Assembly (NCBI GenBank): GCA_001304315.1
Contig: LJUW01000006.1
Location: 2,135 to 66,134 of the forward strand
Direction of reading: 5' to 3'
Source of the DNA: a candidate division Zixibacteria bacterium SM23_73_2
GTDB taxonomy: Bacteria; Zixibacteria; MSB-5A5; SM23-73-2
DNA: 64,000 nt
The notes beneath the pieces are model-generated. The model saw nothing but the letters and a program-made list of their open reading frames with translations, searched no databases and was not told the DNA's origin. A program made the position numbers and the translations under genes. Positions 16,652 through 63,962 of this stretch are shown piece by piece. The first letter of the stretch is position 1, and each line of letters starts with the position of its first letter.

Positions 16652-17377
16652 ATGTTTATTAAAAATTTTTCCCGGTGGGCAAAAGCACTGTTTTTTCTTT
16701 CGATCTTTTTTGTTTTCTCATTGACTGCGTTTTATGGTCTTTCCACTTCGGGCGATTTTCTATGCGGAGATGTGGATGCAGATGAAGAAGTGACTTTGGG
16801 AGACGTTCTCTACATAGCCAATTATTTCCTGAAGGGTGGACCCGAGCCTGTTCCTCTGGATTGTGCGGATGTCAACTGCGATCAGCAGGTAAATATCGGG
16901 GACGTCATTTATCTGGCAAACTTTCTTTTGAAAGGTGGTTTTTCACCCTGTTGGGCCGAGAGAACAGTTGATTTCGAGGGCTGCAAAACATTCGAAAGAG
17001 GCGAGGCAGACACCATTCCACTTGATCAGGATTGCATCGAATACGGGTATGATGGTGAGAGTGTTTTATCGATCAAGCGTATAAATGCGGGATTTAACTG
17101 CTGTCCTGGAGTGATTAAAGCTTTTGTGGACATTGAGGGCGACGTTATAACGATAGAGGAAAAGGAATTTTATGATGATACCGGACCATGTTATTGCCTG
17201 TGCCTTTTCGATCTGGATTTCGATATAACCGAGATCAACCCTGGCGTATATACCATAAAGGTGATCGAACTTTACCTGTCTGCTGGTGACGAGCCTTTAG
17301 AATTTTCCGTTGATCTTACTAATTCTAATTCTGGTATCTTTTGCGTTAAGAGGTCCGTTTATCCCTGGATGCCTTGA
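16652..17377 (+). CDS. Secreted protein: N-terminal dockerin plus Cys-rich uncharacterised domain (paralogue A)
   Basis: RBS ggaggt; signal peptide; CGDVDADEEVTLGD / DVNCDQQVNIGD loops; NAGFNCCP and CYCLCLFDLDF motifs. Confidence 0.8.
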   Translation: MFIKNFSRWAKALFFLSIFFVFSLTAFYGLSTSGDFLCGDVDADEEVTLGDVLYIANYFLKGGPEPVPLDCADVNCDQQVNIGDVIYLANFLLKGGFSPCWAERTVDFEGCKTFERGEADTIPLDQDCIEYGYDGESVLSIKRINAGFNCCPGVIKAFVDIEGDVITIEEKEFYDDTGPCYCLCLFDLDFDITEINPGVYTIKVIELYLSAGDEPLEFSVDLTNSNSGIFCVKRSVYPWMP

Positions 17378-17472
17378 GAATTGGTGAACAAAACTCTTGT
17401 GGAATCGATAATGGAATAAGTGTCCGGAAGAATGTGAAGTTACTGTTTTCGAGAATCTAAAAGGAGGAGAGA

Positions 17473-18189
17473 ATGAGGCTGAACCGCTCGGTTTTATTGC
17501 CCGAGCTTGGGATTACTTTGATTTTTCTTTTAGTTTTATCATTCACAGTATATGATAATCTTTATTCTGAAGGTTTTTTGTGCGGGGATGCTGATACTAA
17601 TGGTGAAGTGAACCTCAGCGACGTTTTATACATTGCCAACTATTGTCTGAAAGGTGGACTCCAGCCTGTTCCTTTACAATCCGCTGACGTGAACTGTGAC
17701 GGTGAGGTTAACCTGTCTGACGTGATTTATCTGGCGAATTACTTACTGAAAAGCGGATCTCCACCCTGCTGGTTTGAGGTATCTAACACTTCCCAGGGCT
17801 GCAAGACTTTCCAGAAAATTGAGGGGGATATAGTGCCTCCAGATCAGGACTGCATAGAGTATACATACGACGAGGAAAGTGTTTTATCGATCAAGCATTT
17901 AAATGCCGGATTCAACTGCTGTCCCGAGAAGATTAAGATTTTTGTAAACATCCAGAACAGTATAATCACCATTGAGGAGAAGGAGTATAACGGACTTTGC
18001 GATTGCAATTGCCTTTTCGATCTGGATTTTGATATAGAAAACGTTGTCCCTGGAGAGTTTACCATAAAGGTAATCGAGCCCTATCTTCCGTCTGGTGATC
18101 AGCTTTTGGAATTTTATGTTGATCTTTCCTATTCAACCTCAGGCATTTTTTGTGTGGAAAGAACCTGTTATCCCTGGGGGGATTGGTAG
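17473..18189 (+). CDS. Secreted protein: N-terminal dockerin plus Cys-rich uncharacterised domain (paralogue B)
   Basis: RBS aaggagg; CGDADTNGEVNLSD / DVNCDGEVNLSD loops; collinear with paralogue A over the whole mature chain. Confidence 0.8.
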   Translation: MRLNRSVLLPELGITLIFLLVLSFTVYDNLYSEGFLCGDADTNGEVNLSDVLYIANYCLKGGLQPVPLQSADVNCDGEVNLSDVIYLANYLLKSGSPPCWFEVSNTSQGCKTFQKIEGDIVPPDQDCIEYTYDEESVLSIKHLNAGFNCCPEKIKIFVNIQNSIITIEEKEYNGLCDCNCLFDLDFDIENVVPGEFTIKVIEPYLPSGDQLLEFYVDLSYSTSGIFCVERTCYPWGDW

Positions 18190-45229: not shown

Positions 45230-47167
45230 ATGGCAAAAGTTATAGGTATCGATTTGGGGACTACTAATTCATGCGTGGCGGTGATGGAGGGTGGGGAAGC
45301 AAAAGTAATTCCTAATGCCGAGGGTTCCAGGACAACTCCCTCGGTGGTGGCTTTCACCAAGACTGGCGAAAGATTGGTGGGTCTGGTTGCCAAGCGTCAA
45401 GCGATAACCAACTCGGAGAATACTGTTTTCTCGATAAAAAGATTTATGGGGAGGCGGCATAACGAAGTACTGGAGGAGGAAAAGCTGGTTCCATTCAAGA
45501 TAGTGGAGGCTCCTAACGGTGATGTCAGGGTAAAGATTCAGGATAAGGATTATTCGCCCCCTGAGATCTCCGCCATGATCTTACAGAATATGAGAAAGAC
45601 AGCAGAGGATTATCTGGGGGAGAAGGTAACCCAGGCGGTGGTTACTGTTCCCGCATATTTCAACGATTCCCAGCGTCAGGCAACCAAGGATGCTGGAAGA
45701 GTCGCTGGTCTTGAGGTTTTAAGAATCATCAACGAACCAACAGCAGCCAGCCTGGCTTATGGATTGGATAAAAAAATAAACGAGAAGATAGCGGTTTTCG
45801 ATCTGGGAGGGGGAACTTTCGACATATCCATTCTGGAACTGGGCGAGGGCGTTTTCGAGGTGAGATCGACCAACGGGGACACCCATCTGGGCGGGGATGA
45901 TCTTGACCAGAGGGTAATCGATTGGATGGCAGAGGAGTTTTTAAAACAGCAGGGTATCGATCTGAGAAAAGATAAGATGGCACTTCAGAGATTGAAAGAG
46001 GCAGCTGAGAAAGCAAAATGCGAGCTTTCAACCACCATGCAGACCAACATTAACCTCCCCTTTGTCACTGCTGATTCCTCCGGTCCCAAGCACCTGGATC
46101 TGGTCTTGACCCGGGCTAAACTGGAGCAGCTGGTTGATGATCTGATCCAGAGAACAGTTGAGCCATGCAAAAGGGCATTGGCAGATGCAAAGCTTTCACC
46201 CTCGGATATAAACGAGGTCATCTTGGTTGGGGGGCAGACCAGGATGCCCAAGGTTCAAGAGGTTGTTGGTGAGCTTTTCGGAAAGGAGCCCCATAGGGGA
46301 GTCAATCCGGACGAGGTGGTTGCCATAGGTGCGGCAATCCAGGCAGGAGTTCTGGCAGGGGAGGTTAAGGACGTTCTTTTATTGGACGTTACCCCACTAT
46401 CTCTGGGAATCGAGACCCTGGGAGGGGTGATGACCAGGCTGATCGAGAGAAACACAACCATTCCCACCAGAAAATCACAGATATTCTCCACCGCTTCTGA
46501 TAATCAACCAGCAGTTTCAATTAATGTTCTGCAGGGTGAAAGGGAGATGGCCATAGATAACAGGACTCTGGGAAGGTTCGATCTGGTGGGTATACCTCCA
46601 GCACCCAGAGGAATTCCTCAGATCGAGGTTGCCTTTGACATCGATGCTAACGGAATCGTTCATGTTTCAGCCAAAGATTTAGGTACGGGAAAAGAACAGA
46701 AGATAAAGATAGAGTCCTCAAGCGGTTTATCCGAGCAGGAGATTGAGAAGATGGTAAAGGATGCCGAGTCTCACTCAGAGGAGGATAAAAAGAAAAAAGC
46801 TTTGATCGAGTCCAGAAACAAAGCTGACCAGATGGTTTATACAACCGAGAAGACCTTGAGAGAATACGGGGATAAGATCTCAGCGGATGAGAAGAAAAAG
46901 GTTGAGGAGGCGATTGAAAAAGTCAAAAATTCGATCAAGGGTGATAATAAGGAGGAGATAGACAGAGCAGTTGAACAGATGCTCTCTGCCTCTCATAAGA
47001 TAGCTGAGGAGATGTACAAGAAGACCACAGCTCAGCAGCAGGAATCCTCTCCACCCCCGGAAGGTGAGAAAGAGAAAGCGAAAGAGGAAAAGAAGGAGGA
47101 GAAGGAGAAGGGTGCGGTGGATGCGGATTATGAGGTGGTGGATGATGAGGAGAAGAAAAAGGAGTAA
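45230..47167 (+). CDS. dnaK: Molecular chaperone DnaK (copy 1)
   Basis: [39 protein letters not shown], linker DVLLLD and C-terminal DADYEVVD motifs. Confidence 0.98.
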
Positions 47168-47596: not shown

Positions 47597-48466
47597 GTGG
47601 GTAAACAGGTGATAAAAAGTAGATTAATACTGATTCAAATTCTGTTAGCTATATTTCTTATGAGTACGTTCGTATGTACCAACCAACAAACAGAAAAGAC
47701 CAGTGACTCAAAAATCGGAGTGATTGTCAGCATACTTCCTCAGGCTGAATTTGTGGAGAGAGTTGGGGGAGACAAAGTTAAAGTAACGGTTATGGTTCCT
47801 CCGGGAGCGAGTCCCCATACTTACGAACCAAAGCCAGGTCAGCTCAAAGAGGTTAGCAGAGCAAAAGTGTATTTTGCAGTTGGATCAGGTATTGAATTCG
47901 AATTAGCCTGGATGAAAAAAATAGTTGATTTGAGCACGGAAATTTTGGTTCTGGATTGTTCTGAAGGGATTGAGATAAAAGAAGGGGATCCTCATATCTG
48001 GCTTTCCCCTTTTAATGCTATGATAATGGTTGAAAATATCTACCAGGGATTGGTTCAGGTAGATTCTGTCAATAAAAAATATTACTCTGAAAACAAAAAC
48101 AAGTATATTGAGGAACTGAACAAACTGGATGAGGAGTTAACTTTGGCACTTTCAGAAAAGAAAAACAGAAAGATAATGGTTTATCATCCATCCTGGGGAT
48201 ATTTTACCAGAGAATATGACCTCGAGCAGATACCCATAGAGAGGGAAGGTAAAGAGCCGACTCCTAAGGGTATTTTAAATTCGATCAAACAAGCCAGGGA
48301 AGAAGAGATCACAACCATCTTTGCCTCACCGCAATTTGATGCAAAAAAGGCAGAGGTTATTGCCAAAGAGATCGGTGGTGATGTTGTTCTTTTAGATCCG
48401 TTATCAAAAGATTATATTGAGAATATGCGAAAGGTTGCTTTAGCATTTTCAAGGGATTTAAGATGA
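47597..48466 (+). CDS. Metal ABC transporter substrate-binding protein (ZnuA/TroA family)
   Basis: GASPHTYEP, DPHIWLSP, YHPSWGYF and LDPL motifs; no His-rich loop. Confidence 0.92.
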   Translation: MGKQVIKSRLILIQILLAIFLMSTFVCTNQQTEKTSDSKIGVIVSILPQAEFVERVGGDKVKVTVMVPPGASPHTYEPKPGQLKEVSRAKVYFAVGSGIEFELAWMKKIVDLSTEILVLDCSEGIEIKEGDPHIWLSPFNAMIMVENIYQGLVQVDSVNKKYYSENKNKYIEELNKLDEELTLALSEKKNRKIMVYHPSWGYFTREYDLEQIPIEREGKEPTPKGILNSIKQAREEEITTIFASPQFDAKKAEVIAKEIGGDVVLLDPLSKDYIENMRKVALAFSRDLR

Positions 48467-49215
48467 AAGAGGAAATCGTCAGCTTAAAAAACACCTGGGT
48501 GTATTTCAACGATATACTTGTGCTTGAGGATGTTACCTTCTCGTTAAAGAAAAACGATTTTGTATCTCTGATAGGTCCCAACGGCGGGGGTAAGACCACC
48601 ATTCTAAAAATTATACTTGGATTGATAAAACCTGATAAGGGAGAGGTTTTTGTTTTCGGAAAAGCCCCAGAAAAAGGTAGAAAATCAATCGGATACCTAC
48701 CACAATACAGCTTTGTGGATTTGAATTTCCCCATAAATGTCTTTGAGGTGGTTCTTATGGGAAGGTATGATACCGTGGGTAAAGGGTATTCAAAGGAAGA
48801 TAAAGACAGAGCGTTGAATGCTCTGAAAACGGTTGGAATGCTTGAATACAAAGACAGACAGATAGGAAGGCTGTCCAGCGGGCAGCTTCAGAGGATTTAT
48901 ATAGCCAGGGCAATTTGCAGAGAACCTGAATTGCTTTTACTCGACGAGCCCACCGCAAGCGTCGATCCGGAGATGCAGAAATCCTTCTACGAGTTGCTTT
49001 CAGAACTTAAAAAGAAAATGGCAGTGATATTGGTAACTCACGACATCAGTGTGGTCTCGGTTTACGTTGACAGCGTTGCCTGCCTTAACCGCAGGTTATT
49101 CTATCATGGCTCAAGCGAAGCTGCCTTAAAGAAGCTTGAGCAGGTTTACGAGTGCCCGATAGAGCTTTTAGCTCACGGGATTCCTCACCGGGTCTTAAAA
49201 AAGCACGGGAAATGA
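48463..49215 (+). CDS. Metal ABC transporter ATP-binding protein (ZnuC-like)
   Basis: [17 protein letters not shown] and LLLLDEP motifs. Confidence 0.93.
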
Positions 49216-50012
49216 TAGAGCTTCTCCAATACGAGTTTACCCGAAATGCGATTCTTGCTGCTTTGTTGGTCAGTGTTGCCTGTGGAATCGTAGGTACATT
49301 CGTTGTTATTAAAAAAATGGTTTTCATAAGTGGTGGGATCTCCCATGCCGCATTCGGGGGGATCGGTTTGGGATATCTTTTGGGAATAAATCCCATCCTT
49401 GCTGCGATTCCATTCAGCCTTTTGACCGCGCTGGGTATCGGAACCATCAGCAAAACCATAAAGGTAGCCGAGGACACTGCCATTGGTATATTATGGACCC
49501 TGGGTATGGCTCTGGGCATAGTATTCGTTAATCTGGCTCCTGGATATGCCCCGGACCTTTTCAGCTATCTTTTCGGGAGCATTCTCACTGTTCCCTCAAC
49601 TGATTTGATACTGATGCTGGTTTTGGATTTCGTGATTGTAACTGTTGTAATCTTTTTTTTCAGAGAATTCAAAGCGATTTCCTTTGATGAGGAGTTCTCG
49701 ACGGTTATTGGAGTGCCGGCCAGAGGCTTGTATCTTTTGCTTCTCTGCCTGGTGGCTTTAAGCGTGGTGGTGATGATCCGGGTGGTTGGGGTTATATTGG
49801 TGATTGCCCTTCTCACCCTTCCAGCAGCGATAAGCAGACAGTATACCTACAATATCAAAAAATTAATGCTTCTTTCGAGTATTGTAGGTGCTGTTCTGAC
49901 CATAGTGGGACTTTTACTTTCCTATCTTTTTGATTTGGCTTCCGGGGCAACCATCGTTTTAGTTTTAGTATTATGTTTTCTTTTTTCCTGGATTTTAAAG
50001 CGCTCTAAATAG
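49212..50012 (+). CDS. Metal ABC transporter permease (ZnuB-like)
   Basis: [21 protein letters not shown] and [14 protein letters not shown] motifs; ATG 49212 overlaps the upstream stop. Confidence 0.93.
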
Positions 50013-50271: not shown

Positions 50272-51837
50272 GTGGAAAGAAAAATCGTTTTTTTGTTGAT
50301 AATTCTTTTGATTTTATCATCAGGATGCAGTAAAAAAACTTTCAATTATTATAATCAGCCGGAAAAAGGAAGTTTGGTGGGGATGGTCTATCCTCAGGAT
50401 TCAGGTGCCCGGGTATCTGCCTGGCAGGGGGGTGAGGTTGCCTGGAGTTATATTGACTCGGAGGGACTTTTCAAAATCGAAGAGCTTCCGGTTGGAACTT
50501 ACACGATTAAGGTTGAAGCTGAGGGCTATTACACCTACGAAGGCCAGGAGGTTTTCACAATCTATGGAGGAGGGACAACCACTGCAGGAAGAATTGTTCT
50601 TTACAAGATACCGGGAATTATCACTTCCACCTATCCCTCAGATGGTGCAACCGACATCCCCTTGGATGTTCAGATCAGAATAAATTTTGCCAAGGAGATG
50701 GACACTGCCAGCGTGGAGAACGCTTTTGGCATAGACCCGGAAGTTGAAGGGGTTTTTATTTGGAATGAGACAAAAGATGATCCCTATGTTTTGGGAAAGT
50801 ATCTGCGATTTATTCCCTCCTATAATTTAAAAGGTGAAACTATATATACTGTTACCTTGAATACAACAGCTTCTGACCTTTCCGGCGTTGGTCTTTCCGA
50901 GACTTTTAGTTTCACTTTTACCACCAGAGGAGTTGATGTGGTCAGTCACTATCCCTTAGATGGTGATGTGGATGTTAGCACTCAGGCATCTATTAATATA
51001 AGTTTCAGATCAGTAATGGATCAACAGAGTGTGATCGACGCTTTGAGCATCGAACCGGAGATCGAAGGAACAATAAACTGGTACAAGCCAAATAAAACTT
51101 TTTCCTTTTACCCTCTAAGATACTGGGCTACCAATACTCTGTATACAGTTAAAATCGATACCACAGCTAAAGATACCTCCGGAGTTAATCTTTCTGATTC
51201 GCTCGTGTTTTCATTTACCATAGAAGGGATAAAAATCAGATACAGTTATCCATACGATAAGAGCATGAACGTGCGTACCGATACATACATTCATATAGAA
51301 TTCAATACCTTAATGGAGCAAAGCTCGGTAATTGAGGCTTATTCCCTTTCCCCATCAACCGATGGGGAATTCCATTGGGCGAACCTATCCGAGTTCTGGT
51401 TTTACCCTTACAATGATTTGGCAGCAGATTCCAATTACTCCGTAAAAATCGATACAGCTGCTTATGATCTTCATGGCTCAAAGCTGGATAAGGAATTTTT
51501 ATTCGATTTTAGGACCGAACCGATACGGATAGTAACCAACAGACCAGAAAAGGGCGAAACCTATGTTGACCCCAATTCCTATATATACATTGGTTTCAAC
51601 ACCGATATGGATCAGGTTTCTGTGGTGGATGCTTTCAGGATGGTGGATTTCGACTCAGTTGAGATCGAGGGAGGTTTTAACTGGAACGGACTTAGAGGGA
51701 TGACCTTCTATCCAGGCACGACTCTGGAGTATGATAAGGAATATCTGGTTACCATAAACACTCAGGCTAAGGATCTGCACGGGGTTTTGCTCCCCAGGGT
51801 TTTTTCTCTGTGGTTCAGAACAAAGCCATCCGATTAG
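50272..51837 (+). CDS. Lipoprotein with carboxypeptidase-regulatory-like domain and four bacterial Ig-like (Big_5/SbsA-type) repeats
   Basis: Lipobox SSGC; four repeats of the form xYPxDGxxDV...IxIxFxxxMDxxSVxxAF...YTVxIDTxAxDxxG..L...FxFxFxT. Confidence 0.8.
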   Translation: MERKIVFLLIILLILSSGCSKKTFNYYNQPEKGSLVGMVYPQDSGARVSAWQGGEVAWSYIDSEGLFKIEELPVGTYTIKVEAEGYYTYEGQEVFTIYGGGTTTAGRIVLYKIPGIITSTYPSDGATDIPLDVQIRINFAKEMDTASVENAFGIDPEVEGVFIWNETKDDPYVLGKYLRFIPSYNLKGETIYTVTLNTTASDLSGVGLSETFSFTFTTRGVDVVSHYPLDGDVDVSTQASINISFRSVMDQQSVIDALSIEPEIEGTINWYKPNKTFSFYPLRYWATNTLYTVKIDTTAKDTSGVNLSDSLVFSFTIEGIKIRYSYPYDKSMNVRTDTYIHIEFNTLMEQSSVIEAYSLSPSTDGEFHWANLSEFWFYPYNDLAADSNYSVKIDTAAYDLHGSKLDKEFLFDFRTEPIRIVTNRPEKGETYVDPNSYIYIGFNTDMDQVSVVDAFRMVDFDSVEIEGGFNWNGLRGMTFYPGTTLEYDKEYLVTINTQAKDLHGVLLPRVFSLWFRTKPSD

Positions 51838-52010
51838 ACCACCTGAGATTTATTGAACAAAATTCGAAAAGCTTGAGCCCTGAGGTTTGTGTGGGTAAGA
51901 TTTGAGCTTTTGCCGATATTTTAAACAGAAGAGGGTAGATTTCCATCCGATTAGAAAACAGTAGGGTAGAGTCGTATTAATTATGGTAAAACAAAAACCT
52001 TTTTCGAAAA

Positions 52011-54794
52011 ATGAATCTTAAAAAAATAGGCTGGGTGGTTTTTCTTATTGTCCTTTTAGCATCTGCAACAGCTAATTCCCAATACTATTTTGGGAAAAAC
52101 AAGGTTCAGTATATCACCTTTGACTGGCAGGTCCTTTCCACCCCTCATTTTGATATCTACTTCTATCCCCAGGAGAAAGAGATCGCCGAGATTGCCGGAG
52201 GGGTGGCTGAGGAAAGCTACCGCTTTTTGGAGAGCAAGTTCAATCACCACATAGAGAAAAAGATACCCCTTATCGTATACAGCACCCCCTATTATTTTCA
52301 GCAGACAAACGTTATCCCCAACATCCTTCCAGAGAACGTGGGGGGATTTACCGAGTTTTTAAAAGGAAGGGTGGTCGTTCCCTTCAATAATTCCTACTCG
52401 GGATTTGCCCGGACTTTAAGACATGAGCTGGTGCACGTCTTCTCCTTTGAGAAGCTCTCCAGGGTAATGAAAGCTCACAAGAAACACAATTTCGACCCTC
52501 CCCCTCTGTGGTTTGAGGAGGGATTGGCTGAGTACTGGTCAGGAGCGCAGGATTCAGATGCGGAGATGATTCTAAAGGATCTGGTTCTCTCCGGTAATCT
52601 GGTGAGCATAAAAGATATGGGGCGGATTTATGGAACTTACCTGATGTACAAGGAGGGGGAATCCTTCTGTAATTTTATATCGGAGGAATACGGGGACTAT
52701 AGGCTGGCTTTAATCTACGACAATTACTTTAAGGAGGGAGACTTCTCCAAGACGGTGGAGATAACTTTTGGCAAACCGCTTGAGAAGTTGGGTGAGGAAT
52801 GGGAGTATCATCTCAAGAAAAAATACTTCCCTCATATAGAGGACTCTGACTTTCCGGATAAGGTTGCGAGGAAATTGACCTACGACGGCATCAACCTTAA
52901 GCCGGTAATAGTCAGGAGGGATTCGGAGAACTGGATCGCATTCAAATCCAATAAGCTGGGCTATTCCTCCATTTACCTGATGTCTCCCCGGGGCGAAAAA
53001 GAAAAACTTATAACCTTGATCAAAGGGGAAAGGTCGTACGAGTTTGAGTCTTTGCATCTTCTGGAAAGCAGGATCGATGCCTCGGAGGATGGAAGGATAT
53101 TGTTTGTTTCCAAAAGAAACGAAAAGGACGTCCTGTACGTCTACGATACCAAGGAGATGAAAATCTCAAGGGACATTGATTTCGATTCGCTGGTGGTTCT
53201 ATCCTCGCCATCCTGGTCAAAAGACGCAGGGAAAATAACATTTGCCGGAAGCACAGACAGGGGGTTCTGCGATCTGTATTATTACGATCTGGAATGCGAT
53301 TCCCTTTTCAGGTTGACTTTTGACCTTTATCAGGAGAAAGATCCGTGTTTCTCTCCGGACGGGGAGAAGATAGTTTTCAGCTCCGACAGGGGAAGATTCG
53401 GGGAAAAGGGATATCTAAATCTCTTTTGTTATGATCTTAACTCAAATGAGATACAGGTGCTCACCTCTGGAGAACATAACGACATAAATCCCACCTGGAA
53501 AGAGAAAGGGATAGTCTTCTCCTCGGATCGCCAGGGGGGATTTGACCTTTTTCTTCTGGACGATGCTTCCAAAACCTACAGGATTACCAATCTGCTCACC
53601 GGGGCTTTTGATCCTCGAATTTCTGATGAGGAGAGCAGTCTGGTTTTCACCGGATTTCAGGATTACTCCTTTCAGATATACAAGATGCCATTTGGTGATT
53701 CTTTGCTTTTCCCTTTGCCTGATGATGAAGGTAAGGCAAGTTTAGTTAGTTGTGAGGAAGGGTGGTGTCCGGATATGCTGTCCGGGGAACACAGGAAGGG
53801 AACAGTTAAATACAAAAATAAGTTCTCCTTTGATATTGCCCAGTCCGCAATCTCATATGATGCTATCTACGGTCCCATAGGTGGATTTCAGGGAGCCCTA
53901 ACTGACGTTTTGGGGAACAACCAGATTTATTTCCTTTTAGCTAATACCGCACAATCCAAATCGGATTTTTTCAAAAGCTTTAATTTGGGTGTGACCTATC
54001 TGAATAAATCCAGAAGGTTGAATTATGGTCTGGGCGCCTATCACCTTTATGACGAATATAGCTATTCGATTAAAGATTTTTATAATTATTATACCGAGCG
54101 CCAGTATGGCGGTATATTATTCGGAAGCTATCCCTTATCCAAATTCCGCAGGGTGGAGGCAAAAATCTTTTTAAGGCAGTCGGAAAGGGATTATTACATA
54201 GAGAGAAGAAAAAGGAAGGCTTTTCTTGCTACCAATTACGTTTCCTTTATCAAGGATACCAGCATCTGGGATTGGGTAGGTCCGATAGATGGGACCAGGC
54301 TGAATTTGACTCTGGGGCTGACCCTGGGGTTAGACGATCGGAAGATATACAACCGCTTGGTTCTTTTCGATTTCAGGAAATACTTAAGATTGGGCAAATA
54401 CAGCTGTTATGCTTTCAGGTTCACCGGTTTTTCCTCTGAAGGGGAGGAACCCCAGAGGTTATTTCTGGGGGGGAGCTGGAGCTTGAGGGGTTATTCCAGA
54501 AGGGCTTTTTACGGAAGGAATATGGTCTTGATCAACAACGAGTTGAGATTTCCCTTAATCGATGATCTGTACATTGGATTTCCCATCGGGAAAATCGGTT
54601 TTCAGGCAATAAGGGGTGCACTGTTTTTCGATCTGGGAAATGCCTGGGACAAATATGATGATGAACTTCATGCAAGCTATGGATTGGGGGCACGTCTGGG
54701 TCTCGGGTATCTGGTGGTTTTGAGGTTTGATTTTGCTCGAAACTTAGATACCAAAGATTGGGTGTTCGATTTCTTTTTTGGCTGGAACTTTTAA
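52011..54794 (+). CDS. Omp85/BamA-family protein with N-terminal zinc-metallopeptidase (MA-like) and PD40/TolB propeller domains
   Basis: HELVH...WFEEGLAEY; FSPDG repeats; Omp85 lid motif GGSWSLRGY; terminal DFFFGWNF. Confidence 0.85.
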   Translation: MNLKKIGWVVFLIVLLASATANSQYYFGKNKVQYITFDWQVLSTPHFDIYFYPQEKEIAEIAGGVAEESYRFLESKFNHHIEKKIPLIVYSTPYYFQQTNVIPNILPENVGGFTEFLKGRVVVPFNNSYSGFARTLRHELVHVFSFEKLSRVMKAHKKHNFDPPPLWFEEGLAEYWSGAQDSDAEMILKDLVLSGNLVSIKDMGRIYGTYLMYKEGESFCNFISEEYGDYRLALIYDNYFKEGDFSKTVEITFGKPLEKLGEEWEYHLKKKYFPHIEDSDFPDKVARKLTYDGINLKPVIVRRDSENWIAFKSNKLGYSSIYLMSPRGEKEKLITLIKGERSYEFESLHLLESRIDASEDGRILFVSKRNEKDVLYVYDTKEMKISRDIDFDSLVVLSSPSWSKDAGKITFAGSTDRGFCDLYYYDLECDSLFRLTFDLYQEKDPCFSPDGEKIVFSSDRGRFGEKGYLNLFCYDLNSNEIQVLTSGEHNDINPTWKEKGIVFSSDRQGGFDLFLLDDASKTYRITNLLTGAFDPRISDEESSLVFTGFQDYSFQIYKMPFGDSLLFPLPDDEGKASLVSCEEGWCPDMLSGEHRKGTVKYKNKFSFDIAQSAISYDAIYGPIGGFQGALTDVLGNNQIYFLLANTAQSKSDFFKSFNLGVTYLNKSRRLNYGLGAYHLYDEYSYSIKDFYNYYTERQYGGILFGSYPLSKFRRVEAKIFLRQSERDYYIERRKRKAFLATNYVSFIKDTSIWDWVGPIDGTRLNLTLGLTLGLDDRKIYNRLVLFDFRKYLRLGKYSCYAFRFTGFSSEGEEPQRLFLGGSWSLRGYSRRAFYGRNMVLINNELRFPLIDDLYIGFPIGKIGFQAIRGALFFDLGNAWDKYDDELHASYGLGARLGLGYLVVLRFDFARNLDTKDWVFDFFFGWNF

Positions 54795-54797
54795 TCC

Positions 54798-55925
54798 ATG
54801 AAAAATTCCTTTAGATTTTTATTACTCTTTTTTTGTTTTCTTTTTTTATTTTGCAGTTCAAAGTTGAAATTTAAAAATTTTGATGCAAGTGAGCCCACCT
54901 CCTGGAGAAAGTTTCGCAGTGATTTGAAAAACTCCTCTTTTGTTCCTCAAAAAACCAGCCTGCCACAAAAGCTTATGTGGAGAGAAAAGCCAAGAGGTGC
55001 TTTAGCCAGCTCCCCTCTGGCCACAAACGGTTTTTTGATTTTGGGAGGCCTGGATAATAAGCTTTATTTTTTGGATGCGAAAACCGGTGAAAAGAAAAAG
55101 AATTTGAAGACCAAATCTCACATCTCCTCCTCCCCTTTTCTTGAGGATTCGATTTTGTATTTTTCATCAGAGCAAGATGATGGAAACCTTTATGCTCTTA
55201 ACCTTCTTAACGGTGAGATCCTGTGGCAGAAGGATTTCAAGGATCCCTCCAACTCGCCTCTGGCAATAGATGAAAAGATTTACCTGGGCACTTACGATGG
55301 GAGATTTTTCTGTCTGGATGGAGCCTCAGGTAAAGTTCTCTGGTTTTTCAAAGCTGGTGATATAATAAAATCGATCCCTGCTTATGATGATGGTTTTCTG
55401 TTCTTTGGCTCAGGAGATAGAAACTTTTATTCTCTGGACAAAGAATCAGGTAAAGAGATCTGGAGATACAAAGCAGGCTCAGCTATTTACTCCTCCCCGG
55501 CAATAAAGGAGGGGATGGTCTTTTTCGGCTGCCTGGATGGAACCTTCTATGCTCTTGATAAAACCAATGGAGATTCGCTCTGGAAATTTGACACCCAGGG
55601 TAAGATATTTTCGTCTCCAGCAGTGGATGATTTGAAGGTTTATTTTGGCTCAAACGATGGATATTTATATGCGGTTAATTCCACCTCAGGAAAATTAGAG
55701 TGGAGATTCGATGCAGAATCGGCCATTAATTCCTCGCCTATTGTTGTGGGGGATAAATTATTTTTTGGCTCTCTGGATGGCAACTTCTTTGTTCTAAACA
55801 AGGCTAATGGAGAGCTTTTATGGAGTTACAGAACAGAGGGGATGATTTTATCCGAGCCGGTTTTCTATGATGGGAGGATATACATAACTACTTTCGATGG
55901 GTGGGTTTACTGTTTTGGGGAGTAA
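54798..55925 (+). CDS. PQQ-type beta-propeller repeat protein (BamB-like), probable lipoprotein
   Basis: Repeats of the form SSPAxxDGxVFFGSxDGxxYALDxxxGxxxWxF; N-terminal hydrophobic run ending FLFC-S. Confidence 0.85.
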   Translation: MKNSFRFLLLFFCFLFLFCSSKLKFKNFDASEPTSWRKFRSDLKNSSFVPQKTSLPQKLMWREKPRGALASSPLATNGFLILGGLDNKLYFLDAKTGEKKKNLKTKSHISSSPFLEDSILYFSSEQDDGNLYALNLLNGEILWQKDFKDPSNSPLAIDEKIYLGTYDGRFFCLDGASGKVLWFFKAGDIIKSIPAYDDGFLFFGSGDRNFYSLDKESGKEIWRYKAGSAIYSSPAIKEGMVFFGCLDGTFYALDKTNGDSLWKFDTQGKIFSSPAVDDLKVYFGSNDGYLYAVNSTSGKLEWRFDAESAINSSPIVVGDKLFFGSLDGNFFVLNKANGELLWSYRTEGMILSEPVFYDGRIYITTFDGWVYCFGE

Positions 55926-56094
55926 TTCAGTCAGCGGATTGAGTGGATTTAACGGATTTTGTGTTGTCAACGGATTGAACGGATTTAGCAGATAGGATTT
56001 GCAGGCACGGATTCTATACGTGCCTTTGAATTTCTGACATCAGAATTTTTTCTCGAAGTTTTTATAATACATGCTGAGAGCAACTGGATTATCA

Positions 56095-56396
56095 ATGAAA
56101 TATTGCTGGGATGTTTTGGCGGGGTACCCATACCCCGTTAGCTTTTTTGTCAAGGGTGGGGGCACCCTTGACCAACTTCCAGGATGACTCCCGAAGGACG
56201 TTAGGGAATCCTGTTTTTGCCACATGTGGATTGCTTTACTACGCTCTCAATGACATTCTGGGCAAGTCATTGCGGGGAACGAAGTGACGAAGCAATCCCC
56301 TAGAAGAAAGGAACTGCTTCGCCCTTCGGGCTCGCAGTGACATTTAGTGACATTTAATGTATCGTTAATCCCATCTTTGCCTCAAGGTGGGTTAAC
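56095..56396. repeat. Composite palindromic repeat, copy 2
   Basis: Shares atgaaatattgctgggatgtt...gtcaagggtgggggcacccttgaccaactt...gactcccgaaggac...aatgacattctggg...gaagtgacgaagcaatc with 36394-36653. Confidence 0.8.
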
Positions 56397-56612
56397 GCTC
56401 AAAATCCACATACAATCTGTAAAAAGAGAAGAACATAGAGAAAACACTATTGACATTTGGGGATATTTTATTAAATTAGTAAAAGAAGCGTGTGATAGGT
56501 TCATATTAGACTTATTCCACGTAAATTTGATTTTTTATGCTGAATCGCAAAATTAACTGTTGTGATTTTGTATTCTTTACCGACAGATAAATAAAAAACC
56601 CAGGAGTAAAAG

Positions 56613-59426
56613 ATGAGTAAATCGAGAGTGATTATTGCACTGCTTTTCGGGACATTGGTTATCTTCTCTTTCAAGCCTGTTTTATCGGCTGAGTATGAAG
56701 TAAGTTATATGGCTGAGTTCTACCTGGATGAGTTTGTGTTTGACAAAAACATGGGATATGATGTGGTGTTTTTAAAAAATGGAGATTGCGTGAACGAAGT
56801 TGGAGAGCCGATGCTGCCATCAAAGGGATTGAGAATAGCTTTGCCCGCTGGAATGGAAGTGAAATCGGTGAGGGTGACAGACACAGAGGTGATGGAGCTC
56901 TCAGGCGAGTTCGACATCTTTCCTTCTCAGCCACCAAGAAAAATCGGACCAAATGACAAGAATATTGATTTCGTCGAGCCGAACAAAAGGGCATATGCTT
57001 CCAATCAACCTTATCCGGAAAAAATAGTTGAATTGGTTCATCAGAGCGATTTGGCAGGGCAGGGTATCGCTCATATCGTGATTCATCCTATGCAATATGT
57101 GCCGGCTGAAAAGAAACTTAAATTTTACACCTCCATAGCTCTGGTTCTGGAAGGTGTGGGTGGTTATGAGTGTAAAGATTATCTTTCTCCGGGAATATCG
57201 GATAAAGGAAGAGAAACCTACCTCAGAATGATCAAGGGTATGGTTCAAAATCCTGAGGAGGTAAAGTTAGAGTCAGCCTTTAAAATAAGAAGCTCGACAA
57301 CCCAGCTTCCGGAGGGACCGTTTGATCATGTGGTTATCACCTCATCGACTTACGCCTCCTATTTTGAGCCGCTGGTATATTGGCATACCAAAAAGGGAAT
57401 AAAGGATACGGTTATAGATAAGGACTGGATATATGCCAACTACAGTGGAGCAAGCAATCAGGAGAAGATTCGCAACTTTGTGATCGATGCCAATTCAAGC
57501 TGGGGAACGACATATTTTCTTTTAGGAGGGGAGAATGAGACTATCCCTTTCGAGTACAGAAACTATGATGAGGGGAATACCCCCAGCGATCAATACTATT
57601 CGGACTTCGATGATGACTGGACTCACGAGGTCTTCGTTGGCAGAGCCAGCGTGGGTAGTACATCCGAGGTTAATACCTTTGTTAACAAAGTCTTAAAATA
57701 TGAGAAGGACCCTCTCAGAACGGATTACCCCTTAGATGTTTTGCTGGTGGGTATGGATCTGGATGCCTCTACCCATTGTGAAGAGCTTAAAAACACCATA
57801 GACAGTTACATTCCCTCCCAGTTCAACGTGACCACGGTTTACGATAGTGATGGTGGGAGTCACCGAACCGCCGTTATCAGTGCTCTGAATTCTGGTCAGA
57901 ATCTGGTAAATCATGCTGACCATTCCTATATTAACTATATGGGAACCGGTGATTATAACCACGGCCTGGGTATTTACAACCAGGATGTGGACAATCTGAA
58001 CAATAACGATCAAACCTCGGTTGTGGTTTCCACCGGCTGCGATCCCAATTACATGGACAACAACGATTGCATTGCCGAGCATTTCGTGATCTATAATCCC
58101 AATCAGGCGGGAGTGGCTTTCACCGGTAATACCCGAAGTGGATTGTACTATGGTGGTGACCCTTACAGCTTATCCAATATGCTGGACCGGGAATGGTGGA
58201 GAGGGCTTTTTACCCGAGACGCATACAAATTGGGAGATGTTCTGGTGGACAGCAAACATAACTTTCCCACCGGTACTAATAATGTCAGGAGGCATTGCGA
58301 ATGGACCTTTAACCTTCTGGGCGAGCCGGAGATGCCGATCTGGACAGATTCCCCCGACAGTCTGGCAGTGAGTTTCCCAGATAAAATTCCCATAGGGAGC
58401 TCACAATTTATCATTTACGTTGAGGATTCAACCACCCACTCTCCCGTATCTCAGGCGTACATCTGTTTGTGGAAAGAAAATGAGGTATATCTTACCGGAT
58501 TTACAAATTTCAACGGATATATGACCTTCTTCCCCTCTCCAGCCACCCATGGGACCATGTATGTGACCGTGACCAAACAGAATTACCTCCCCTATGAGAG
58601 TGAGGCAACCGTTGCCAGTCCACTGGTCTTTACCCAGCCGGCTACTGAGGTGGAGGAGACCAGCGCGACCATTCATGGTTTTCTGGAAGACGATTTTGGA
58701 TTGGAAACCACCTGCTGGCTTGCCTGGGATACGGATTCGGGTGAGCCTTATGCTGACATCGAATCTTTGGGAGTTAAAGGAAGCGGACAGGAATTCGAAA
58801 TTGAACTTACCAGCCTGACCCAGGGAGAGCTTTACTACTTCGTGGCCAAGGCGCAAAACGATGCAGGATGGAGCAGTGGGGAGGAACTTAAATTATTGAC
58901 CAAACCTCTTCCGCCAGCGGAACTGACCGCGGAGGCGACCAGCTGCAGTACCGTATATCTCAGCTGGACCAAACCTCCTCTGGTTGAGAAGACGATGATA
59001 GAAAGAAACCATACCCCGGCCTGGACCAGAGGAGAGGGAACCGAGATCTACAATGACACCAGTTCCCATTTCCAGGACTCGGGACTGGAGCCGGAGAGCC
59101 TTTTCTATTATCAGGCATGGTCGCTCTGCGAAAAAGAGGAGCTTTTCCAATACAGCGACGACTATGATCAGGCTGATGCGGTTACCCTTTTTATGTGCGG
59201 GGATGTCAATGGGGATAAGAGGATTGATCTATCGGACGTGATTCATCTGGCGAATTATTATCTGAAAGGTGGAGATCCGCCCCAGGAGCCAATCTGTCGC
59301 GGAAACGGTAACGGAGATGAAGCTATAAATCTTTCGGATGTGATTTTCATAGCCAACTATTATCTGTCAGGCGGTGATCCTCCCCATGATTGCGAGAACT
59401 ATGTACCGGCAGTTAGTAAGCAGTAG
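56613..59426 (+). CDS. C25 family (gingipain-like) cysteine peptidase with propeptide, Ig/FN3 domains and C-terminal dockerin
   Basis: Propeptide VGEPMLP; KIRNFV, FLLGGE, SDQYYSD, VFVGR; catalytic-region NHADHS and TGCDPN; NLLGEPEMPIWT; dockerin CGDVNGDKRIDLSD / NGNGDEAINLSD. Confidence 0.88.
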   Translation: MSKSRVIIALLFGTLVIFSFKPVLSAEYEVSYMAEFYLDEFVFDKNMGYDVVFLKNGDCVNEVGEPMLPSKGLRIALPAGMEVKSVRVTDTEVMELSGEFDIFPSQPPRKIGPNDKNIDFVEPNKRAYASNQPYPEKIVELVHQSDLAGQGIAHIVIHPMQYVPAEKKLKFYTSIALVLEGVGGYECKDYLSPGISDKGRETYLRMIKGMVQNPEEVKLESAFKIRSSTTQLPEGPFDHVVITSSTYASYFEPLVYWHTKKGIKDTVIDKDWIYANYSGASNQEKIRNFVIDANSSWGTTYFLLGGENETIPFEYRNYDEGNTPSDQYYSDFDDDWTHEVFVGRASVGSTSEVNTFVNKVLKYEKDPLRTDYPLDVLLVGMDLDASTHCEELKNTIDSYIPSQFNVTTVYDSDGGSHRTAVISALNSGQNLVNHADHSYINYMGTGDYNHGLGIYNQDVDNLNNNDQTSVVVSTGCDPNYMDNNDCIAEHFVIYNPNQAGVAFTGNTRSGLYYGGDPYSLSNMLDREWWRGLFTRDAYKLGDVLVDSKHNFPTGTNNVRRHCEWTFNLLGEPEMPIWTDSPDSLAVSFPDKIPIGSSQFIIYVEDSTTHSPVSQAYICLWKENEVYLTGFTNFNGYMTFFPSPATHGTMYVTVTKQNYLPYESEATVASPLVFTQPATEVEETSATIHGFLEDDFGLETTCWLAWDTDSGEPYADIESLGVKGSGQEFEIELTSLTQGELYYFVAKAQNDAGWSSGEELKLLTKPLPPAELTAEATSCSTVYLSWTKPPLVEKTMIERNHTPAWTRGEGTEIYNDTSSHFQDSGLEPESLFYYQAWSLCEKEELFQYSDDYDQADAVTLFMCGDVNGDKRIDLSDVIHLANYYLKGGDPPQEPICRGNGNGDEAINLSDVIFIANYYLSGGDPPHDCENYVPAVSKQ

Positions 59427-61931: not shown

Positions 61932-62057
61932 TTTCAAGCTGAGACAATGACCAGCCCTCCCGCCAGTGGCGGGAGGGTGCTGATTTGTCAAGGATTAAAA
62001 GGAAGATTATGATTTTATTTTTATATATATCAACTATAAAAGAAGGAGGTGGAAATA

Positions 62058-63962
62058 ATGGGTAAAATAATAGGAATAGATTTGGGAACCACTAACTCCT
62101 GCGTTGCGGTTGTTGAAGGGAAAGATCCGGTGGTGATTCCCAATGCCGAGGGTACCAGAACTACACCATCTGTGGTTGCCTTTACCAAAACAGGGGAAAG
62201 GCTTTTAGGACAGGTGGCTAAACGCCAGGCTATCACCAATCCAGATAATACTATCTTCTCCATAAAGAGATTCATGGGCAGGAAATACGATGAGGTTGGT
62301 GAGGAGATGGAGACGGTTCCATTTAAGGTTGTCAGGGGTTCGGGTGGAGATGCCTGGGTTAAGATAAGAGATAAAGAATACTCTCCGCCTGAGATATCGG
62401 CAATGGTTCTGCAGAAGATGAAAAAGACCGCAGAGGATTATCTTGGCCAGAAGGTTACCCAGGCGGTGATCACGGTTCCAGCCTATTTCAACGATTCCCA
62501 GCGTCAGGCAACCAAGGATGCTGGAAGGATTGCGGGCTTGGAGGTTAAGAGGATCATAAACGAACCCACTGCAGCTTCTTTAGCTTATGGATTGGACAAG
62601 AAGAAGGACGAGAAAATAGCTGTTTTTGATCTGGGTGGTGGAACTTTCGACATATCCATTCTTCAATTGGGTGAGGGAGTTTTCGAGGTTATCTCCACCA
62701 ATGGCGATACTCATCTGGGAGGAGATGATTTCGACAAAAGGGTAATCGACTGGATCGTTTCCGAGTTCAAAAAACAGGAGGGTATCGATCTATCAAAGGA
62801 CCCCATGGCTTTGCAGAGATTAAAAGAAGCTGCGGAGAAAGCAAAATGTGAACTCTCGACCACTTTGGAAACTACTATCAACTTGCCTTTCATAACTGCT
62901 GATTCCTCCGGCCCCAAACATCTGAACCTGACCCTGACCAGGGCTAAATTCGAACAGCTGGTGGATGATTTAATCCAGAGAACTGTTGATCCGGTGAAAA
63001 ATGCCTTATCCGATGCTAAATTAGAACCGGATCAGATCGATGAGGTCATTCTGGTTGGTGGAATGACCAGAATGCCCAGGGTTCAGCAGGTGGTAAAGGA
63101 GCTTTTCGGCAAAGAGCCTCATAAAGGGGTCAATCCAGACGAGGTAGTTGCAGTTGGTGCTGCTATTCAGGGTGCGGTTTTATCAGGTGAGGTTAAGGAT
63201 GTACTGCTTCTGGACGTAACTCCGCTTTCCTTAGGTATTGAAACCCTGGGAGGTGTTTTTACCAAGCTGATAGAAAAAAATACAACCATTCCCACCCGGA
63301 AATCGGAGATATTCACCACTGCAGAGGATAGCCAGACCACAGTAGAGATTCACGTTCTTCAGGGTGAGCGCCCCATGGCAATTGATAACAGAACCATCGG
63401 AAGGTTTCACCTGGATGGAATTCCACCCGCGCCCCGGGGTATGCCCCAGATCGAAGTTGCATTCGACATCGATGCCAACGGAATTTTGAATGTTTCGGCC
63501 AAGGACAAAGCCACCGGAAAACAGCAGTCGATCAGAATTGAGGCTTCTTCCGGATTATCCGAGGCTGAGATTCAAAAGATGGTTAATGATGCTGAATCTC
63601 ATTCTGCTGAGGACAAAAGGCGCAGGGAAGAGGTGGATGTAAAAAACCGAGCTGACCAGATGGTTTATGAGACTGAGAAGAACCTGAAGCAATTCGGGGA
63701 TAAGATGGATACAGATTCTAAAGCCAAGGTTGAGGCTGCTGTTTCGAGGGTGAAGGAAGCTTTGAAAAAATCGGATATACAGGAGATCAAATCTTCTACC
63801 GAAGCCTTAACCCAGGTATGGCATCAGGCAGCAGGAAAGATGTATCAGAAGACCACTGGATCTGGACCAACAGGTTCTGCTCAGCCGGGTCCGGAACCTC
63901 AGAAGGAGGATAAAAAGGATAAAGACCAGCCGGTGGATGCAGATTATGAGGTGGTAGATTAA
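62058..63962 (+). CDS. dnaK: Molecular chaperone DnaK (copy 2)
   Basis: Same canonical motifs as copy 1; ATG 62058 after aaggaggtgg. Confidence 0.97.

Follow-up and report, generated by a model that had tools for sequence, protein, structure and literature searches.

In a 64,000-nt stretch of contig LJUW01000006.1 (hereafter the window) from the genome of the candidate division Zixibacteria bacterium SM23_73_2, we analyzed four genes that encode a lipoprotein with immunoglobulin (Ig)-like repeats (P0001), a fusion of a peptidase, a propeller and an Omp85 barrel (P0002), a lipoprotein with a pyrroloquinoline quinone (PQQ)-type propeller (P0003) and a gingipain-like protease carrying a dockerin (P0004). 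P0002 and P0003 very probably represent a WD40-like Omp85 protein and its conserved lipoprotein partner, unrelated to dockerins. In a phylum sample of 151 Zixibacteria genomes covering 87 genera, the peptidase-propeller-Omp85 fusion was found in every genome (151/151) and every genus (87/87), and the PQQ gene was located directly behind it in 29/30 loci of a short set and 20/21 loci of a long set, with a single 180-aa open reading frame (ORF) intervening in the remaining long locus. The sole genus without adjacency has a diverged PQQ copy 2.5-4.5 kb downstream of the fusion. An earlier reading of this DNA (the original prediction) had proposed the four genes, all of which are present with ORFs at the positions it gave, and had described a dedicated outer-membrane machine; the latter holds for P0002-P0003 as a conserved unit, but not for the trio that includes P0001.

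The claim that P0002 is a 927-aa Omp85 protein in which an HExxH...E peptidase and a PD40 propeller replace the POTRA domains was confirmed by Pfam, by an AlphaFold2 (AF2) model and by Foldseek. P0002 scored above the Pfam cut-off for Peptidase_MA_2 (PF13485; 34.7 versus 32.4 bits), matched PD40 (PF07676) at 6.5e-15 and the TolB family TIGR02800 at 9e-29, and in a genome search exceeded the cut-off for the Omp85 profile PF01103 (36.1 versus 24 bits); weak ShlB/BamA/Omp85 matches were also obtained in protein-level domain searches, and the propeller matched TolB chains in the PDB at ~6e-10. The AF2 model, built on a 69-sequence alignment (predicted local distance difference test score (pLDDT) 81.4, predicted template-modelling score (pTM) 0.78), shows residues 40-285 as a helical domain, residues 294-560 as 22 beta-strands, residues 561-605 as a low-confidence linker and residues 606-925 as 16 barrel strands. 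The 22 strands are consistent with a six-bladed TolB-type propeller, and TolB (2ivz) was the best Foldseek match of the model, with the barrels of BamA and TamA also found. P0002 thus has the C-terminal 16-strand barrel matching PF01103 that marks the Omp85 superfamily. POTRA domains were detected neither by domain searches nor in the AF2 model, in which the propeller leads through the linker to the barrel, and they were absent too from the precomputed domain lists of P0002 homologs; P0002 is therefore a non-canonical superfamily member. A patatin domain was not matched in Pfam either, so that the combination of patatin, POTRA and barrel typical of type Vd proteins (PlpD) is not that of P0002.

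To describe conservation, 131 representatives of 50%-identity clusters, with 31-50% identity to P0002, and a second set of 69 orthologs were used. Residues R120, H138, E139, H142, W167, E170, G171 and Y213 are invariant in the representatives (131/131), and the HELVH motif (H138, E139, H142) is unchanged in all orthologs (69/69). P0002 thus displays the HExxH motif, downstream Glu and conserved Tyr by which gluzincins of the MA clan are recognized. Omp85 barrels are characterized by a loop-6 (V/I)RG(F/Y) motif and an FxDxG motif, as defined in the literature on BamA, FhaC and TamA. The corresponding loop-6 LRGY of P0002 (residues 825-828) retains R826 in 129/131 and G827 in 127/131 representatives, and its barrel-wall FxDxG retains F872 in 126/131, D874 in 127/131 and G876 in 110/131. 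This degree of conservation indicates that the catalytic and barrel motifs of the family are under selection.

Comparison of the peptidase-domain profile with the PDB returned only marginal matches, to M9 collagenases (E 0.009), in an alignment that covers the C-terminal half of the domain and places WFEEGLAEY on WWSEGIAEY. Because of this alignment and of general knowledge on gluzincins, E170 was taken as the putative third zinc ligand. The N-terminal domain of P0002 is probably an active gluzincin, probably an endopeptidase, its ligand and catalytic roles being assigned from the motifs and the M9 alignment. M9 collagenases share with P0002 the HExxH and the downstream E within W-x-EG-(L/I)-AEY, but their accessory domains are absent from P0002, and since the PDB profile matches were merely marginal, we do not claim a MEROPS family for the peptidase. 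The lowest AF2 confidence falls on the most conserved N-terminal motifs of P0002, namely QYYFGKNKVQY, which sits directly behind the signal peptide, and YFQQTN...GGFTEFxKGR; these segments may contact the barrel or bind a partner or the substrate.

The architecture of P0002 is not new, having been catalogued as WD40-like Omp85 in 2014. The survey of Heinz & Lithgow 2014 (Front Microbiol 5:370, PMC4104836) recognizes a 'WD40-like' Omp85 cluster with profiles PF01103 and PF07676, in which PD40 stands in place of POTRA in the same three-part layout as in P0002; its Table S3 gives for this class Phyre matches to the BamA barrel, TolB and an aminopeptidase, with a column headed 'best aminopeptidase hit'. 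Both characters of the class are found in P0002, a PD40/TolB propeller before the barrel and an N-terminal aminopeptidase-like (MA clan) domain. A 2024 paper describes the class as having 'divergent WD40 and peptidase domains'. The original prediction had referred to known Omp85 classes with WD40 or metalloprotease N-domains: peptidase and propeller do occur together in the WD40-like class, but the 'Metallo' class, according to PMC4104836, carries PF00149 and is therefore not the class of P0002. Neither a conserved PQQ lipoprotein partner nor a function is mentioned for the WD40-like class in the passages of that survey that were consulted, and no paper on the partner was found in a limited literature search.

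P0003 begins 3 nt past the P0002 stop codon, and in its orthologs the ORF mostly overlaps or abuts the barrel gene. It matched PQQ_2 in Pfam at 7.7e-49 (166.9 bits), whereas the BamB equivalog TIGR03300 scored 169.1 bits against a cut-off of 285.2 and PRK11138 scored 123.9 against 423; BamB chains in the PDB matched at ~1e-20, and the closest PDB sequences were generic PQQ-repeat propellers. The lipobox is degenerate in this genome (LFLFC) and canonical in most orthologs, so that the P0003 family, like BamB, consists of PQQ-type propeller lipoproteins. Of the BamB-like PQQ lipoprotein that had been predicted, the spacing and the PQQ_2 fold were thus recovered, but the lipobox is not intact here and the protein falls under the BamB cut-off. 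An Omp85 barrel paired with an eight-blade-type PQQ-fold lipoprotein recalls BamA-BamB; unlike P0002, however, BamA possesses POTRA domains, which are the site of BamB binding, and unlike BamB, P0003 misses the equivalog cut-off in a genome that has a separate canonical BamA. It is quite unlikely that P0003 is the phylum's BamB serving the BAM (beta-barrel assembly machinery) complex, with P0002 as a BepA-like protease at or near BAM and their adjacency reflecting co-regulation and not a complex of just these two proteins. Such an assignment would agree with P0003 being the best PQQ_2 match of the genome and the only one among its PQQ_2 proteins with a lipoprotein signal (N-termini read by eye), with the canonical BamA, and with BepA-BAM quality control, which is an established precedent. 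It is opposed by the low equivalog score and the generic closest structures, and by the genomic linkage: in all genomes checked the PQQ gene goes with the fusion instead of bamA, with the ORFs mostly overlapping or abutting.

Outside the phylum, the fusion-PQQ pair was also found on a contig that is probably from Gemmatimonadota, because its dapF shares a 90%-identity cluster with proteins named Gemmatimonadota, and in another distant assembly, where a PEGA gene follows. Four other distant family members have no adjacent PQQ gene, and the ORF downstream of the fusion at locus L145 was rejected as a propeller partner, not being recognisably a propeller. When contigs were scanned with the family alignment, the 80 loci retained were all from Zixibacteria, some of them labelled Ignavibacteria, which does not give a cross-phylum picture. 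The fusion family comprises >1,000 clusters at 50% identity, and a FastTree phylogeny divides it into two deep subfamilies (support 100), with P0002 and all PQQ-paired members within one of them and the pairing occurring in three of its subclades. This genome has a second copy of the fusion on another contig (C31:4880-7996, minus strand; 1038 aa, 39% identity, HELTH intact), which belongs to the other deep subfamily, lies directly downstream of murA and lacks a PQQ neighbor. Family relatives elsewhere are located after dapF or dapF-dapA-dapB, and the murA and dap neighbors hint at a link of the fusion family with cell-wall genes.

Other envelope proteins of the genome were inspected as well. 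The canonical BamA gene stands beside OmpH-like (skp) and LpxD-like ORFs (neighbors read by eye), two Omp85 proteins are each preceded by a very large ORF and were read by eye as TamAB pairs, an 874-aa Omp85 ORF on contig C48 was read as patatin-like from its N-terminal motif, and a canonical TolB gene is present. As BamA, the TamAB-like pairs, the patatin-like Omp85 and TolB are all separate, the fusion replaces none of them. The propeller of P0002 resembles TolB of the Tol-Pal system by sequence and fold, but TolB is soluble and binds Pal, whereas the propeller is fused to a barrel; the propeller was rejected as a TolB replacement, given that the genome keeps its own TolB. The sequence of that TolB gene (C26:36191-37358) is broken into two frames and contains an in-frame TGA, probably because of an assembly error or a frameshift.

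With regard to function, the fusion is most likely of a housekeeping character, because it is universal in the phylum. Our tentative proposal, which we regard as plausible but somewhat short of an even chance, is an outer-membrane-anchored periplasmic protease for quality control or turnover of envelope proteins, a functional analog of BAM-associated BepA that carries a barrel of its own. In this scheme, P0002 and P0003 would be expressed from a two-gene operon that forms a real unit; the N-terminal peptidase and TolB-type propeller would face the periplasm; and the two proteins would assemble into a protease complex anchored in the outer membrane. The complex may capture and cut outer-membrane proteins or lipoproteins that are unfolded, stalled or in excess as part of envelope housekeeping, with both propellers, and possibly the barrel seam, serving as substrate platforms. 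A zinc metalloprotease placed at a barrel for outer-membrane protein quality control has its counterpart in BepA; BepA, however, is an M48 protease with tetratricopeptide repeats (TPR) that is recruited, whereas the protease of P0002 is a fused Peptidase_MA_2 gluzincin. The orientation is suggested by the general Omp85 topology and by the precedent of PlpD, the patatin-like Omp85 of Pseudomonas aeruginosa, whose enzyme domain is experimentally periplasmic according to PMC11116518. PlpD likewise has an enzyme N-terminal to an Omp85 barrel and, in the same source, exemplifies an Omp85 scaffold reused for a new function, but it is a homodimer with a lipase domain and POTRA, whereas P0002 has a peptidase and a propeller, no POTRA and a lipoprotein partner.

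Several points weigh against a quality-control protease of this kind. Some members of the subfamily of P0002 have no adjacent PQQ gene; the modelled active-site geometry of P0002 is uncertain, because the most conserved N-terminal motifs have low model confidence; and the periplasmic location of the N-terminal domains is only inferred. A limited literature search found no functional experiment on any WD40-like Omp85. The genes for Hsp20, DnaK, DnaJ and ClpB that lie downstream of the pair in most of the phylum, and the envelope genes or TatC upstream of it, count in favor of an envelope-housekeeping role, but the chaperone genes may reflect inherited gene order without shared regulation.

A broader version of the degradative reading, to which we assign a distinctly lower probability and which we consider doubtful, is that of an ancient, self-contained second outer-membrane machine in Zixibacteria, Gemmatimonadota-like and other lineages. 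It would act as an 'anti-BAM' degradation or extraction device, in which the barrel seam recognizes beta-signal-bearing or stalled envelope proteins and passes them to a propeller-gated zinc protease, with a PEGA protein in some lineages and the Ig-repeat lipoprotein perhaps as an extra adaptor in this genus. The retention of the loop-6 RGY and FxDxG motifs in the P0002 family, which are not degenerate, would instead suit a client-specific insertase or translocase, whose barrel inserts or exports surface proteins, whose peptidase trims a pro- or targeting peptide and for which P0003 provides a BamB-like client platform; the BamB-like nature of the partner and the PEGA protein beside the pair in another lineage would fit too. 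Stripped of the dockerin link, this is the general core of the original prediction. We nevertheless judge such a machine unlikely, as P0002 has no POTRA for receiving clients and the long loci show no conserved candidate client gene beside the pair across the phylum. According to PMC11116518, one POTRA or more is present in every Omp85 insertase or translocase studied.

The decidedly unlikely alternative of a surface nutritional protease would have the peptidase and propeller displayed outside the cell, digesting external proteins or peptides, which would then be taken up, alongside the gingipain-like proteases. The presence in this 2.26-Mb genome of 72 ORF segments with a dockerin and of five C25 paralogs does suggest a proteolytic surface, and peptidases of the DPP-IV and tricorn families are likewise gated by PD40 propellers. 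However, Omp85 N-termini are periplasmic, the PlpD passenger included (PMC11116518), and the universality of the fusion, its second deep paralog by murA and the dap genes near relatives look like housekeeping. In addition, basic residues, and not an acidic Bacteroidetes-type export signal, follow the lipobox Cys in the P0003 family, which argues weakly in the same direction.

P0001 agrees with the predicted four-Ig lipoprotein: its signal peptide ends in LSSGC with Cys19, and Pfam finds CarboxypepD_reg and four Big_5 stretches (E 2e-55), with Big_10 also matched. In its AF2 model (pLDDT 90.3), Ig-like sandwiches follow one another in a row. The long GTG start is supported by Cys19 and the downstream KK-x-x-NYY, whose conservation among 32 homologs is >=90%. 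P0001 is a lineage-specific neighbor outside the conserved module. Separated from P0002 by 174 bp, it has 41 detectable relatives, and a gene of its type was found near the pair only in this genome, in a congener and on one Joint Genome Institute (JGI) contig (in the order Big_5, HEAT, Omp85, PQQ). In two other relatives, the Big_5 lipoprotein gene lies elsewhere: beside ccm genes in one, and in the other, which is distant, as homolog P0462 (L151:3649-8278) just downstream of a patatin-POTRA-Omp85 gene, with DnaJ following it. The Big_5 lipoprotein family thus occurs near two different Omp85 types. P0001 was rejected as the equivalent of the PEGA partner of other lineages, similarity being absent (E 1.5).

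The role of P0001 as a dockerin scaffold lost its support, as neither Pfam (PF00963) nor the Foldseek top 50 revealed a cohesin in it, the latter consisting of generic Ig arrays, Ig-like domains of L,D-transpeptidases and the Sap S-layer protein, while cohesin-domain matches occur on other contigs of the genome (C100, C65, C59). The C25-dockerin gene predicted to follow does exist as P0004, but 687 bp away from P0003 and behind a terminator-like hairpin and a promoter-like site, the best in the region, so that P0004 is probably a separate transcription unit as judged by consensus matches. A C25-dockerin gene near the pair was seen in the same genus only, with two extra ORFs intervening in the congener, and a dockerin ORF within ~8 kb of the pair was found in 3/20 other loci and not in the remaining 17/20. 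Dockerin matches, whose per-genome counts are often lower bounds, were obtained in 149/151 Zixibacteria genomes, and in one genome (G090) the pair occurs and dockerin matches are lacking. Since dockerins are phylum-wide and both dockerin segments and C25 paralogs are numerous here, adjacency to the pair is weak evidence, and the proposed dockerin cargo link fails. A limited literature collection contained no paper naming both Zixibacteria and dockerin.

It is thus very improbable that a three-part machine, with the Ig-repeat lipoprotein as scaffold and the Omp85-protease and propeller as exporters, exports or matures dockerin cargo. Here and in the congener, all four genes share one orientation, and in one JGI relative a dockerin gene stands beside the cluster, with the Big_5 lipoprotein gene again upstream. 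In 19/20 other long loci, however, the trio is absent; its gene order, which the original prediction had named beforehand as a refuting test, is not conserved; and the small, elsewhere-located P0001 family, the scarcity of dockerin ORFs near the pair, the dockerin-free genome, the signals before the C25 gene and the missing cohesin all speak against it.

Further features of the locus (Table 1) and its surroundings were recorded. Dockerin genes of the window include 16652-18189 and 56613-59426. A GGATT-rich 28-nt repeat (GTCARCGGATTGARYGGATTTA...) occurs in three copies 18 nt apart at 55930-55993, directly past the P0003 stop, and several GC-rich hairpins are found at 56100-56400 in the P0003-P0004 spacer; an Rfam search of 49-62 kb gave no match. 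The exact 13-mer CCATCCGATTAGA is present at 51826-51838, overlapping the P0001 stop codon, and at 51943-51955, 56 nt upstream of the P0002 start, with no further exact copy in the window, and may have a regulatory or attenuating role. On either side of the locus lies a full-length DnaK (Hsp70) paralog (45230-47167 and 62049-63962): two Hsp20 genes and then DnaK occupy 61.1-64.0 kb, and the second DnaK with ZnuABC occupies 45.2-50.0 kb. This ZnuA-ZnuC-ZnuB zinc ATP-binding cassette (ABC) importer (47597-50012) is immediately upstream of the Big_5 lipoprotein gene and the zinc-peptidase gene and is not found at this place in the congener. Upstream of the pair, most of the phylum has TatC, or else UppP with a heptosyltransferase-phosphatase and a small protein lacking annotation. 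Across most of the phylum (loci L040-L057), a HEAT-repeat protein of ~740 aa is encoded beside the pair, on one flank or the other. Its gene is missing at this locus, with a weak partial match on contig C104 of this genome, and the start of the protein, as read by eye, shows no evident signal peptide; for these reasons, it was not counted as part of the outer-membrane module.

Table 1. Coordinates of the genes, domains, motifs and candidate signals at the locus (positions in the window)
Feature	Position	Strand	Description
P0001	50272-51837	+	521 aa, GTG start; CarboxypepD_reg and four Big_5 Ig-like domains, lipoprotein
P0002	52011-54794	+	927 aa; signal peptide, predicted gluzincin peptidase, TolB-like propeller, POTRA-less 16-strand Omp85 barrel
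Conserved low-confidence segments of P0002	~52062-52118 and ~52287-52367	+	residues 18-36 and 93-119; AF2, alignments
Peptidase_MA_2 domain of P0002	52119-52865	+	residues ~37-285; PF13485 above cut-off, helical in AF2 model
HELVH motif of P0002	52422-52436	+	H138, E139, H142; predicted zinc-binding/catalytic motif, invariant in orthologs
E170 of P0002	52518-52520	+	within WFEEGLAEY; putative third zinc ligand
TolB/PD40-type beta-propeller of P0002	52890-53690	+	residues ~294-560; PD40, TolB, AF2 model
Omp85 barrel of P0002	53826-54791	+	16 strands; loop-6 RGY 826-828, FxDxG 872-876, C-terminal FFFGWNF
P0003	54798-55925	+	375 aa; PQQ/BamB-fold propeller lipoprotein
Terminator-like hairpin and T-run	56116-56141	+	downstream of P0003; consensus match only
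Promoter-like site TTGACA-16-TAAATT	56450-56477	+	upstream of P0004; 10/12 consensus positions, consensus match only
P0004	56613-59426	+	937 aa; Propeptide_C25, Peptidase_C25, Ig-like C-domain, terminal Dockerin_1 (gingipain-like)

The value of this window is mostly corrective, in that a connection with dockerins and an Ig scaffold finds no support and the architecture was already known. Outer-membrane biogenesis depends centrally on Omp85 proteins, and all of those studied either insert or translocate proteins. The WD40-like class differs in carrying its own invariant protease and propeller while keeping the Omp85 motifs, and in having a dedicated, phylum-wide lipoprotein of the BamB fold. 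Should the pair indeed act as an Omp85 machine that is degradative or client-specific, the Omp85 superfamily would gain a new functional type, and there would be a handle on the envelope proteostasis of uncultured bacteria of the Fibrobacteres-Chlorobi-Bacteroidetes (FCB) type.

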